NCBI GenBank assembly: GCA_963782525.1
Contig: CAWAKC010000011.1
Span: 1 to 64,000, forward strand
Direction of reading: 5' to 3'
DNA: 64,000 nucleotides
From: Candidatus Bathyarchaeota archaeon
GTDB lineage: Archaea; Thermoproteota; Bathyarchaeia; Bathyarchaeales; Bathycorpusculaceae
The position numbers and the translations under genes are program-made. The notes under the pieces are model-generated. The model was not told the DNA's origin. It was given only the letters and a program-made list of their open reading frames with translations, and searched no databases. Shown one piece after another: positions 9,044-12,090 of the stretch (within the stretch, counting starts at the first letter, position 1; each line of letters starts with the position of its first letter).

Positions 9044-9700
9044 CTATTCTTCGTATTTTGTTCGATCAGCGATGCATGCTTCCTTGAAGGCTTTTTTGCG
9101 ATTTACACAAGATTCGCACTTGCCGCAGTGTTTGGTGTCCTCACGGTAACAGGACCATGTTAACTCAAATGGCACGCCCAGTTTGACGCCTTCTTCAATT
9201 ACCTCGGATTTGCGTTTGCCACTGAATGGCGCGTGAATACTAATGTTATCGCCTGTACCCAACTTTGCCGCTTTCTCAAATGTCTCGTAAAATTCTCGAC
9301 GGCAATCAGGATAAAACGGTTCATCTGAGCCGTGTGCGCCATAAAAAATTTTGTCAGCGCCAACTGAAACCGCATAGGAAACGGCTACGGATAAGAAGAT
9401 GGCGTTTCTGAAGGGGACAATGATGGGTTGGCTGAATTCGGCTGTTAGGGGGATGTCGCTATTGCAGAGTGAGGTTACGTCGCCGAACACGCTTTTTAGG
9501 GCTGAGAGGTCAACGATTTTTGTTTTGGCGCCGAGGCTTTCAGCGATTTTTTCTGCCGAATGGGTTTCTTTTACTGCGATTTGTCCATAGTTGAAAGTTA
9601 TAGGGTACAATTTGTACCCCTCTTTTTTTGCCCAGTACGCCACAACGGCTGAGTCTGGTCCGCCGCTGAGGACGATTACGCATTTTTTGTTCTTTTTCAT
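9044..9700 (-). CDS. queC: 7-cyano-7-deazaguanine (preQ0) synthase
   Basis: SGGPDS PP-loop, VPFRNAIF, YPDCR, TWSCY, CGKCESC. Confidence 0.95.
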   Translation of the reverse strand: MKKNKKCVIVLSGGPDSAVVAYWAKKEGYKLYPITFNYGQIAVKETHSAEKIAESLGAKTKIVDLSALKSVFGDVTSLCNSDIPLTAEFSQPIIVPFRNAIFLSVAVSYAVSVGADKIFYGAHGSDEPFYPDCRREFYETFEKAAKLGTGDNISIHAPFSGKRKSEVIEEGVKLGVPFELTWSCYREDTKHCGKCESCVNRKKAFKEACIADRTKYEE

Positions 9701-9712
9701 ATTATTTTCACC

Positions 9713-10249
9713 TTAGTTTTGGGGAGGCTGCGGATAGTTTCCTTTTTCGTTTCCAAACCATCTCTGGAATAAGCCTGTCCTTTTTAGTAATTTGAAGATG
9801 GGCCATCCAATTAGCACTGTGGCAATGATGTTTCCGATGGCAACGTAGGCGATTGTGAGAAGCAGTGGCAACCCGTATAGGTAGGATAGCATCCATCCGA
9901 CCGTTGTGCCGATGACGAACGAGTAGGCGATGCAGGTTGCGATTACAGTGTAATCGTTTTGGGTGCGTTTGTAGGTGTAGTAGACTACAAAGGACATGGC
10001 GAAGGAGGGTATGGTGTTGAGGAGATCGATGGGGCCAGCTGACGAGAAAATGTTACCGATGAACACTCCGAGGGTGTGCCCTAAAACTCCTGCTATTCCA
10101 AGTAAGGGAACAGCCGCAACCATTGAATCGGCGATTCGGACTTGGATTGGTCCATAAGAGAACCCTCCTAAAACAATGACGAGCGCTGCGTAGAGTGCAG
10201 CGTAAATTGCAATTACAGCTAATTCTTGTGTGCGTATTTTCAGTTTCAT
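9713..10249 (-). CDS. queT: QueT-family queuosine-precursor transporter
   Basis: AIYAALY...SYGPIQVRIAD motif, multi-TM, directly upstream of queC. Confidence 0.85.
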   Translation of the reverse strand: MKLKIRTQELAVIAIYAALYAALVIVLGGFSYGPIQVRIADSMVAAVPLLGIAGVLGHTLGVFIGNIFSSAGPIDLLNTIPSFAMSFVVYYTYKRTQNDYTVIATCIAYSFVIGTTVGWMLSYLYGLPLLLTIAYVAIGNIIATVLIGWPIFKLLKRTGLFQRWFGNEKGNYPQPPQN

Positions 10250-10316
10250 TTCTCCCTACTCCCGGGTTTTATTTTGGTTGGCGGAACGGGTAGGAGAACC
10301 ACTCACCCGCCAATTG
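10250..10316 (-). promoter_or_regulatory. structured 5' leader, candidate preQ0/preQ1 riboswitch
   Basis: P1 UUGGCGG/CCGCCAA, loop containing GUGGUUC, A-rich tail, and a 3' GUAGGGAGAA (RBS region) complementary to loop UUCUCCUAC. Confidence 0.55.
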
Positions 10317-10414
10317 CCCATAAAAGTATGAGTGTCGCCTAAAAACCTTATGAAAAACTTTTTCACAGACGTGTGTTTGATTGCTGGGGTAATGAATTTT
10401 GTTTGTCAAGAAAT

Positions 10415-12090
10415 GAGACCGTGTAAAAAATAGCGCAGCGGCCAGTTGTTAACTTGAAAAAGTACTTAATACTTTTTGAGATTTTACTTTCTCTTATTCT
10501 TTATTTTTTAACAAGCGCTTGGATTAGAGCTTCAACCCCAAGAATGTTTAGAGCTCTCCTCAAATTATAAGAAAACAAAAGCAACCCAACCTCCCCACTA
10601 ACCTTGCGAAGACCTTTAAGCAGCAAATATGGAGCACCAAACGCTCTCTTCAAAGTTCCAAACGTATGCTCAATCACTTTTTTGCGTTCACCCATAATCT
10701 CTGGATGCAATTTCATCCGCTTTCTCATATCATCGACAACTTCTTCGTGCACCCACCGCCAAATTACCCGACCTACCTTATTGCCTGTGCACTTAGTCAT
10801 AAAAAATTGGCATGAAGAGCAAACACCTTTCTGGCATCTGTAAATACGCATCTCAATCCCTTCACGAACGCTCAAACAATAAAACAAAAGACGCCGCCCA
10901 GCTGGACAAACATACACATCAGCACTCTTATCATAACGGAATTTGTCAGCAGTAAACTCCGGAGACACAAGACCGCCACCGCTTCCAGATCTCTTCACTG
11001 CAACATAAGGCGTAACCCCACTGTCGACACATTGCTTAATCTGCATGAAGTCAAAATAACCTTTATCAGAAATACAATCAATCTGCTCTACTCCTAGTGT
11101 TTCTTTTGCGCTTATAGCTACTCCGCTGAGCTGATTTAGGTCTGAAGCTTCGTTAGTCACCAGGTAGTTGACGATGAGATGGTTTTTTGAATCCACTGCT
11201 GCCTGCATGTTATAGCAGGATTCAACTCTGCCATGATTCATCATCTGCCGACAATCCAGATCAGTTAGAGCAACTTCCTTTTGACCACTCTTTTCTATTT
11301 TACCAAGGATTTCTTGGCTCTTTTCTTTTTTCTCAAGCAACGCAGCCAATTTGTCTACCATAAAAGCCTTCGCCACTTCACCTGACTCGCTACTTGCTTG
11401 TTGCTCGTCAGATGCTTCCTGCTCATCTGCAGCATCTAACTCGTCTAGGTAGTGTTTTACTGATTTTTCCATGACCTTTATTCTCTTTGCAAGCGCTCGT
11501 TGGGTAAAGGCTTTATCATTGGAGTTGACGGCCCGAAGTTTGGTGCCATCTACGGTTACTTGTTTTGCTCCATAGAGACTGAGATCTTTTAAGAAAGCTA
11601 CAAAATCTTTGAACAAGGCGCATATGGCTGCTGGGTTGTCTTTTCTAAAATCCGCTATGGTTTTAAAATCGGGTGCTAAGCCTTTGAGCAGCCACATTGC
11701 CTCAAGGTTTGTTTTGCATTCTCGTTCTAGCTTTCTGCTTGATCGGATGTGGTTTAGGCCTCCGTAGAGATAGAGTTTACAGAGATCTTTTGGGTTGTAT
11801 GATGGTCTTCCAAGGTCTTGTGGTGTTGAGTGGGTGAAGCCTAACTTTTCCATGTCCAGCGTGTTTACGTAGGCGTCTATGAATCTGACTGGGTTGTCTG
11901 GTTCTACGTATTCTTCTATGGTTTTGGGCAGTAGGAACGTTTGGTTTCTGGATAAGCCTTCTACATAGCTGTCGGTTTCATCGTTCATTGTCTGCTCACT
12001 TATTTTGGTCTTGTTTGTTATGGGCGAAGGGTCTAGATTTAAGGTTAACGGCATAATAGACGAGTTAGAGCAGACTTTTCACACAGTCTC
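10415..12090 (-). mobile_element. IS1182-family insertion sequence (1676 bp)
   Basis: Terminal IRs GAGACCGTGTAAAAA / GAGACTGTGTGAAAA. 4-bp AAAT target duplication at 10411-10414 and 12091-12094. Confidence 0.9.
10501..12054 (-). CDS. IS1182-family DDE transposase
   Basis: GRPSYNP, SSRKLERE, PDFKTIADFRKDN, VDGTKL, SDKGY, IEHTFGTLK motifs. Confidence 0.95.
   Translation of the reverse strand: MPLTLNLDPSPITNKTKISEQTMNDETDSYVEGLSRNQTFLLPKTIEEYVEPDNPVRFIDAYVNTLDMEKLGFTHSTPQDLGRPSYNPKDLCKLYLYGGLNHIRSSRKLERECKTNLEAMWLLKGLAPDFKTIADFRKDNPAAICALFKDFVAFLKDLSLYGAKQVTVDGTKLRAVNSNDKAFTQRALAKRIKVMEKSVKHYLDELDAADEQEASDEQQASSESGEVAKAFMVDKLAALLEKKEKSQEILGKIEKSGQKEVALTDLDCRQMMNHGRVESCYNMQAAVDSKNHLIVNYLVTNEASDLNQLSGVAISAKETLGVEQIDCISDKGYFDFMQIKQCVDSGVTPYVAVKRSGSGGGLVSPEFTADKFRYDKSADVYVCPAGRRLLFYCLSVREGIEMRIYRCQKGVCSSCQFFMTKCTGNKVGRVIWRWVHEEVVDDMRKRMKLHPEIMGERKKVIEHTFGTLKRAFGAPYLLLKGLRKVSGEVGLLLFSYNLRRALNILGVEALIQALVKK

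Follow-up and report, generated by a model that had tools for sequence, protein, structure and literature searches.

To our knowledge, riboswitch predictions for Archaea are very few. The archaeosine pathway has preQ0 as its last free base, and preQ1 is made by the enzyme family QueF. In the consulted part of PMC11549558, the fluoride (crcB) riboswitch is the only native archaeal case named as experimentally validated, and it provides a precedent for riboswitch control in Archaea. The preQ1 riboswitches, as they are treated in the consulted sections of a review of 2024 (PMC11625349), are assigned to bacterial phyla only. Class preQ1-I also binds preQ0, more weakly, and carries UC (type I) or AC (type II) before the 3' strand of P1, with the C pairing with the ligand (PMC11625349). 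Control by preQ1-II is described as purely translational (PMC11625349, PMC11602147). We describe here an archaeal queT leader which, judged from comparative sequence analysis, probably belongs to a new riboswitch class that turns translation off, with preQ0 as its most likely ligand.

The leader lies on the minus strand of the window, by which we mean the whole stretch of 64,000 nucleotides that was analysed, in front of queT and queC.

10250-10316, minus strand: queT leader, directly 5' of queT, with its quoted sequence verified
9713-10249, minus strand: queT, the presumably controlled gene (178 aa; PF06177, E 2.1e-23), with its start codon at 10247-10249
9044-9700, minus strand: queC (218 aa; PF06508, E 6.7e-63)

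A first-pass annotation had proposed a preQ0/preQ1 riboswitch upstream of queT-queC at this place. The sequence that it quoted in transcript sense is found exactly at 10316..10250 on the minus strand, followed by ATG at 10249-10247, and the identity of both downstream genes agrees with their Pfam matches. The leader comprises the 67 nt before the ATG. A gap of 12 nt separates queT from queC, and the two genes are probably co-transcribed. No leader peptide was found, and there is no ATG within the leader.

A weak or partial match to the Rfam preQ1 models had also been expected. Rfam scans of 1.5 kb and 101 nt around the leader at E<=10 did not bear this out: they returned no preQ1 family and one chance snoRNA-like match each. 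Scans of the loci of ten relatives gave no preQ1 family and chance sub-threshold matches to snoRNA or sRNA families. In the scan of one relative's locus (L009) the 3' end of an archaeal LSU rRNA was recognised, indicating that the genus is archaeal. When RF00522 (gathering score 39 bits) was run over the source genome at E<=10, 16 weak matches were obtained, none of them at the leader (150 of 785 first-look candidates scored). No description of such an archaeal element was found in the main texts searched, and the terms 'preQ1-IV', 'preQ0 riboswitch', 'preQ0-sensing' and 'archaeal riboswitch' gave no match.

QueT is present in 51 of 61 related genomes. The 160 nt upstream of 25 QueT orthologues of the genus, which span 60-97% protein identity, are dissimilar except for a nearly constant block of about 65 nt. 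Conservation of the leader among orthologous queT loci, a check suggested in the first-pass annotation, thus goes far beyond that of the flanks. A covariance model search of the source genome gave a single strong match (E 6.9e-23), the second best having an E of 0.09. With model R1, the covariance model of the 65-nt block, the motif was found in 90 of 120 genomes of the genus, in one copy each except for two genomes with two, and was not found in the other 30. Over the order, R1 matched 125 of 151 genomes at E<=0.1 (115 of those at E<=2e-6, counted from the table), with matches in 57 of 63 genera and in each of the 12 families of the sample. Given a single strong match in the source genome and in most relatives, the leader element is far more than a chance occurrence.

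Model R2, built from 150 diverse copies, matched 29 of 151 genomes in a sample of the phylum, including another order of the class and other classes. In other classes the motif was detected in 9 of 15 genomes of family f21, 3 of 3 of f33 and 2 of 2 of f37, and several large families gave no R2 match (0 of 19 in f15, 0 of 13 in f19). The weakest match of the phylum sample (G275, L335) showed no motif by eye or by regular expression and was discarded as chance.

The exact pattern of the conserved blocks, searched in one genome per prokaryotic species, was found in at least 117 stretches. Among these matches as listed, 102 are titled Bathyarchaeia, Bathyarchaeota, Bathyarchaeum or Bathycorpusculum, six 'Nitrososphaerota/Nitrososphaeria archaeon', and four Methanomethylicota, Methanomethylicus or Methanosuratincola; Promethearchaeati, Methanocella and 'uncultured archaeon' occur once each, and two carry bacterial names. 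Both motif and QueT are present in the records titled Acidiferrales bacterium (L269), Krumholzibacteriaceae bacterium (L270), Methanocella sp. (L277) and Promethearchaeati archaeon (L256). In the records with such odd titles, QueT shares 59-100% identity with QueT of the window's order, which makes the taxon titles doubtful and argues against spread into other groups. Mis-binned contigs or wrong labels are the likely cause, and gene transfer could also account for them. With the exception of L277, the named records whose QueT is closest to the window's (62-84% identity) carry the titles Bathyarchaeota, Bathyarchaeia or Bathycorpusculum.

In one genome, a second copy of the leader precedes a queT gene broken into several frames or pieces (G023:C2:6253-6841, L033), which suggests a decaying duplicate. 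When QueT was sought in five genomes of other families, it was present in one (G267). This genome, from another family of the same phylum, has two queT genes (L361, L362) with short unstructured upstream regions and no motif, indicating that the leader is not universal for archaeal queT.

Comparison of the copies indicates that the leader is an H-type pseudoknot made of three helices, P1, P2a and P2b. The predicted elements of the window copy are the following, in transcript order.

10307-10313, minus strand: 5' strand of P1, UUGGCGG with core GGCGG, pairing with 10278-10284
10299-10306, minus strand: L1, consisting of GU, then RRGUGG and a variable linker; the GU after P1 is invariant in 150 leaders
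10292-10298, minus strand: 5' strand of P2b, UUCUCCU, an anti-SD mimic pairing with 10250-10256
10291, minus strand: unpaired A between P2b and P2a, at least 90% conserved
10287-10290, minus strand: 5' strand of P2a, CCCG with core CCG, pairing with 10261-10264
10285-10286, minus strand: L2, UU right before the P1 3' strand, first U at least 90% conserved, second invariant
10278-10284, minus strand: 3' strand of P1, CCGCCAA, covarying with 10307-10313
10265-10277, minus strand: L3, A-rich linker with a 5' part of variable length and the 3' end A-N-AAA-N-CC
10261-10264, minus strand: 3' strand of P2a, CGGG, pairing with 10287-10290
10257-10260, minus strand: linker AGUA between P2a and P2b, varying in length and sequence
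10250-10256, minus strand: 3' strand of P2b, GGGAGAA, the Shine-Dalgarno (SD) region, complementary to the 3' end of the organism's own 16S rRNA

The 302 motif loci, in which some genomic places occur more than once, contain 246 distinct sequences, from which 163 leaders at least 6 edits apart were retained. The structure-blind MAFFT alignment comprised 150 leaders, the first 150 in locus order. Over these, the pseudoknot is paired in 86.9% of cells, compared with 43-56% when the 3' partners were slid by 1-3 columns, and both-sided changes occur at 14 of its 19 pairs. The covariation score was 0.273 against 0.131 in shuffles, and 0 of 500 shuffles reached 0.273, a result which, like the Wilcoxon figures, overstates significance since relatives are not independent, so that p-values are not meaningful. 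An alignment restricted to the genus (n=27) gave 93.6% paired cells against 42-64% after sliding. In a duplex test that requires no alignment, a leader's own tail was the better partner for its loop, compared with tails taken from other leaders, in 192 of 237 distinct loop-tail combinations, with mean duplex energies of -12.7 kcal/mol for the own tail, -10.9 kcal/mol for other members' tails and -7.3 kcal/mol for the shuffled own tail.

Covariation was found in both P1 and P2, as the first-pass annotation had proposed to check. The P1 that it had drawn (UUGGCGG 10313-10307 / CCGCCAA 10284-10278) is borne out, with covariation: its five core pairs form in 97-100% of the 150 leaders, GC is replaced by CG in 5 of the 150, and the next outer pair changes from GC to AU, UA or GU. 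The outermost two pairs are often unpaired. P2b is paired in 86.5% of cells and shows double changes at all 8 pairs, part of this signal being made up by the joint loss of one loop C and one tail G. Within the family, the loop sequences CUCCU, CCUCC(C) and CACCUCC occur with the SD sequences GGGAG, GGAGG and GGAGGUG, and distant copies have different yet matching P2b strands (UUCCG/CGGAA, GUCUCU/AGAGAC, CAUCUCC/GGAGAUG). The 3' end of the organism's own 16S rRNA (...GAUCACCUCCU, also given as CACCUCCU) identifies the P2b 3' strand as the SD and the loop strand as a copy of the ribosomal anti-SD.

The SD thus lies within P2b, in keeping with the original idea of a ribosome binding site buried in the pseudoknot. 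The loop-SD pairing proposed at that time holds in part: it is real and covaries, with CUCCU/GGGAG conserved, and its UAC/GUA pairs are not conserved. These last pairs are rejected, since the loop A does not pair and the linker in the tail differs in length between copies. The earlier description of P2 had also missed the second pseudoknot helix, P2a (CCCG 10290-10287 / CGGG 10264-10261). The P2a core is paired in 98-99% of leaders and is nearly invariant, so that its covariation support consists of one double change, CAG/CUG in place of CCG/CGG in the L168 leader, and of an optional fourth pair (CG in 52, UA in 18, AU in 1 and unpaired in 79 of the 150 leaders). The L1 linker after GUGAG varies from 2 to 7 nt across the genus, and the likeness to a preQ1 'GGUUC loop' drawn from this stretch turned out to be a coincidence of the window copy. 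In L3, two A and two C are invariant in the 150 leaders, and the linker measures between about 8 and 29 nt in the family. The whole element spans 60-80 nt from P1 to the SD across copies. The invariant or nearly invariant unpaired bases (GU, A, UU and the A-N-AAA-N-CC of L3) all surround the P1/P2a junction in the knot, making this junction a candidate ligand pocket.

The archaeal promoter layout has a characteristic spacing between TATA box and start, which was used to assign the function of the box and the position of the start upstream of the leader.

10348-10351, minus strand: A-rich BRE-like stretch, just upstream of the TATA-like box
10338-10345, minus strand: TATA-like box TTTTTAGG, with T-rich columns at 10345-10340
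10313-10316, minus strand: transcription start zone predicted from the promoter columns, about 26-27 nt past the TATA-box centre

In 169 distinct upstream regions, ungapped and anchored on P1, T-rich columns were observed at -35..-30, with up to 0.95 bit, and A-rich columns at -41..-38. This layout places the predicted start at the foot of P1, 3-6 nt ahead of the GCGG core. The first-pass annotation had raised the concern of a start within the element; the conserved TATA-like box predicts one just 5' of P1. Small parts of the stretch are contained in 14 metatranscriptome runs, four of which were compared. Their contigs, which belong to related strains (90-99% identity) and cannot show transcript start, strand or level, cover queC, queT and the leader, the leader being covered by run X2. 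One X2 contig spans 10130-10414, past the predicted start; it neither confirms nor refutes this start, and DNA carry-over is possible.

Further upstream, an IS-type transposase gene (DUF772 and DDE domains; 10501-12054, minus strand) ends about 185 nt from the leader and about 150 nt from the queT TATA-like box. In several relatives its position is taken by a common stretch starting ATTAATATTTCGCC, which may be a divergent promoter.

An element that begins at the predicted transcript start, the usual site for archaeal repressors, might be a DNA operator for a transcription factor overlapping this start. We regard such an operator as scarcely credible. G-U pairs are frequent in the pseudoknot helices of the 150 leaders, and each would be A-C on the other strand, which fits an RNA made from the minus strand and does not fit an operator. 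Long-range complementarity is kept, there is no palindrome, and conservation extends into the SD.

The genes behind the motif were then compared over the 302 loci. QueT lies directly behind it at 294 of them, 268 recognised by blastp and 26 more by a QueT profile. At four loci the sequence ends within 69 nt of the motif. The four remaining loci have genes of the preQ0 pathway in place of QueT.

Exception locus 1: queC fragment and QueD (PTPS family)
Exception locus 2: QueE-like radical SAM protein and QueC; the best NCBIfam matches of the former are all QueE models, below their cut-offs
Exception locus 3: QueE-like protein and GATase-QueC fusion
Exception locus 4, L221:5724-6557, minus strand: 277-aa ORF and QueC, in a named Bathyarchaeia record

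The 277-aa ORF of the last locus matches neither Pfam nor NCBIfam and could encode a new kind of 7-deazaguanine transporter or a QueT that has diverged strongly. Among 15 matches examined in distant genomes, QueT follows in all 14 that contain the motif as a regular expression. QueC is found behind the motif, on the same strand and within 1.5 kb, at 120 of 264 loci. The element combines general features of riboswitches: a covarying structured 5' leader, transport and synthesis genes of one pathway behind it, and the SD included as the P2b 3' strand, with the capacity for a competing 5' hairpin conserved. The observation made in the first-pass annotation is confirmed. Its riboswitch interpretation is supported, as far as sequence comparison goes, by the occurrence of the same RNA before queE/queC/queD operons, by the SD in the pseudoknot, by conservation and by covariation.

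All the structural and gene-association evidence would fit equally well a real SD-masking pseudoknot that is set by a protein, either an RNA-binding regulator or an autoregulating ArcTGT or QueC. L1 has a purine-rich GAGUGG-like stretch, which we take to resemble the tRNA D-loop, where ArcTGT acts, and it has been speculated that ArcTGT may act on RNAs beyond tRNA (PMC4770233, in the part consulted). We nevertheless consider a protein-bound leader unlikely. The motif has no linked gene for a candidate protein, short variants show that L1 is dispensable except for its first bases, and invariant single-stranded bases gathered at one junction of a very small RNA form the known pattern of pseudoknot aptamers. 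A small-molecule ligand bound at the P1/P2a junction remains the preferred reading.

Riboswitch control would involve an alternative structure. The first-pass annotation had proposed a hairpin, Fold B (CGGGU/ACCCG and GAG/CUC), that competes with the pseudoknot. Fold B can indeed form in 93.1% of cells over the 150 leaders, against 41-53% after sliding, but it has almost no covariation of its own, the score of 0.160 being barely above the 0.144 of shuffles. Where Fold B bases have changed, compensation is found in their P1 or P2 partner and not within Fold B. For the window copy, P1 has an energy of -9.7 kcal/mol and Fold B one of -9.4 kcal/mol, or -11.0 kcal/mol on the first 32 nt made; P2 alone has -11.7 kcal/mol and the P2 duplex -13.2 kcal/mol. 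There are thus two folds that exclude each other and are similar in strength, as required for a switch. Fold B alone could also explain the invariance of the GU and of the loop A, with no pocket needed. A local GAG/CUC hairpin within the bound fold was ruled out, given linkers of down to 2 nt.

These structures are also relevant to a ligand-independent element, acting as an RNA thermometer, as a structure that affects mRNA stability or as a constitutive damper of translation, and conserved before queT by coincidence. The anti-SD copy would mask the SD even without ligand, and the energy of the nested fold is ordinary: the minimum free energy fold has -21.4 kcal/mol (z 0.05), and 95 of 200 shuffles fold equally well. 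An element of this kind is very unlikely, however, as about ten unpaired bases that simple masking does not need are strictly invariant across classes, different genes of a single pathway have this RNA in front of them, and two mutually exclusive, equally stable folds are conserved.

The nature of the ligand was approached through the gene content. The source genome has QueC, QueT and one TGT (a 549-aa frame). QueD (PTPS) was not found in it, nor was a full-length QueE, the matches being to the radical-SAM core with NrdG as the best. The lack of QueD and of full-length QueE suggests that CDG or preQ0 is salvaged and not made from GTP, and the organism seems to salvage a precursor and to finish it with QueC. 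The QueF family was not detected in the source genome (95.8% complete) or in any of the 81 genomes of the order that are at least 90% complete; the control search was positive in 7 of 14 reference genomes. With no QueF detected in these 81 genomes, preQ0 is a fitting ligand; it is the base inserted by ArcTGT (PMC4770233, in the part consulted) and would be the natural choice of a feedback signal.

A second leader motif was observed before paralogous QueT genes, whose products are about 30% identical to the window's QueT. Its copies are located as follows.

L028:1995-2041, minus strand: second motif
L029:1452-1498, plus strand: second motif
L326-L329 and L343-L348: second motif

This motif consists of P1 (GGUAG/CUACC), a loop UUU-CCG-...AAC and an A-rich tail, followed by C(C)GG, which continues into the SD. 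AC precedes the P1 3' strand, the hallmark of preQ1-I type II. The motif nonetheless gave no RF00522 match: an Rfam scan of it returned none, and over five genomes with the motif, no queT leader was listed (150 first-look candidates scored per genome). Its model, R3, matched 9 of 151 genomes of the order, mostly where the main motif is absent or weak. The twelve credible copies are almost invariant and give no covariation support for the structure.

Comparative support for the main leader covers its conservation, its single copy, the covarying pseudoknot, the inclusion of the SD and the gene association. In the mechanism that we infer, with its transcript start, ligand, pocket position and direction of regulation, the loop closed by P1 (GGCGG/CCGCC) would pair through its 3' part with the tail, forming two helices stacked on each other. 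P2a (CCG/CGG) would adjoin P1, and P2b would be formed by the anti-SD copy of the loop and the SD before the start codon. A 7-deazaguanine, most likely preQ0, would bind at the P1/P2a junction and stabilise the knot; the SD would be hidden and translation of the transporter and of QueC turned off. Without ligand, the 5' half would fold into the local hairpin Fold B, tying up the anti-SD and P2a strands and leaving the SD free.

If this proposal is correct, a widespread, single-copy, covarying leader of Bathyarchaeia, a group known mostly from metagenomes, would represent a new riboswitch class with preQ0 as the probably preferred ligand, and translational control by SD sequestration would operate in these organisms. 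The QueT transporters would receive a functional label, pointing to salvage of archaeosine precursors in organisms without queD/queE. As a small natural part, the element could also serve in preQ0 sensing or gene control.

Among known riboswitches, the leader most resembles preQ1-I (RF00522). Both are H-type pseudoknots with a 5-bp P1, a short P2 between loop and tail (P2a, 3-4 bp) and an A-rich L3 with an invariant AA; in both the SD takes part in P2 (part of the SD in preQ1-I), and queT and que biosynthesis genes are the targets. The candidate pocket is at the same junction that holds the ligand in class I (PMC11625349, in the part consulted). This common topology and target, and the presence in the same genus of a second leader even closer to preQ1-I before paralogous queT genes, could be explained by a divergent preQ1-I member that senses preQ1 or any 7-deazaguanine from bacteria, in which case the class would not be new. 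We find this quite unlikely. RF00522 does not match the leader, nor does the leader appear among the matches at E<=10 in the source genome within the 150 of 785 candidates scored. Where preQ1-I has its ligand-reading UC or AC, ahead of the P1 3' strand, the leader has an invariant UU. The element, at about 65-70 nt (60-80 nt from P1 to the SD across copies), is twice the size of the minimal preQ1-I aptamer of about 34 nt and has features that preQ1-I lacks: a long conserved L1 (GU-RR-GUGG), an invariant CC at the end of L3 and an additional helix, P2b, with a full anti-SD/SD duplex. The leader is archaeal, whereas preQ1-I is named from bacterial phyla only in the consulted sections of PMC11625349. 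The 0 of 81 genomes with QueF and the use of preQ0 by ArcTGT (PMC4770233, in part) also argue against a preQ1 sensor. We thus retain a distinct class as the preferred reading.

Like preQ1-II (RF01054, the COG4708/queT motif), the leader precedes queT and holds the whole SD in a pseudoknot helix. However, preQ1-II, an HLout pseudoknot, has a P4 hairpin embedded in it that contributes adenines to the pocket, and is known from Bacillota only, whereas L3 of the present element contains no conserved hairpin and no Rfam match was obtained. SAM-II and SAM-V are classic H-type knots in which a long L1 runs along P2 and the SD is sequestered; they differ from the leader in gene context, conserved bases and presumed ligand, and again there was no Rfam match. 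The preQ1-III riboswitch (RF02680) also precedes queT and uses an anti-SD/SD pairing (PMC11625349, PMC11602147, in the parts consulted). It differs in size and topology, with about 100 nt, a pocket in a three-way junction and the SD far off in a separate helix, and it too gave no Rfam match. The fluoride (crcB) riboswitch has another ligand, another fold and other genes, and its class is common to Bacteria, whereas the present motif occurs almost only in archaeal records. The chances are about evenly balanced that the leader is the first riboswitch class native to Archaea and essentially confined to them, tuned to the archaeosine precursor preQ0 and not to preQ1. On this reading, and taken with the second, preQ1-I-like queT leader of the same genus, Archaea would have developed 7-deazaguanine riboswitches of their own. 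As part of the same reading, the class would range over Bathyarchaeia, Methanomethylicia and neighbouring Thermoproteota, with a pocket of GU, UU and the CC of L3 that is unlike those of the three bacterial preQ1 classes.
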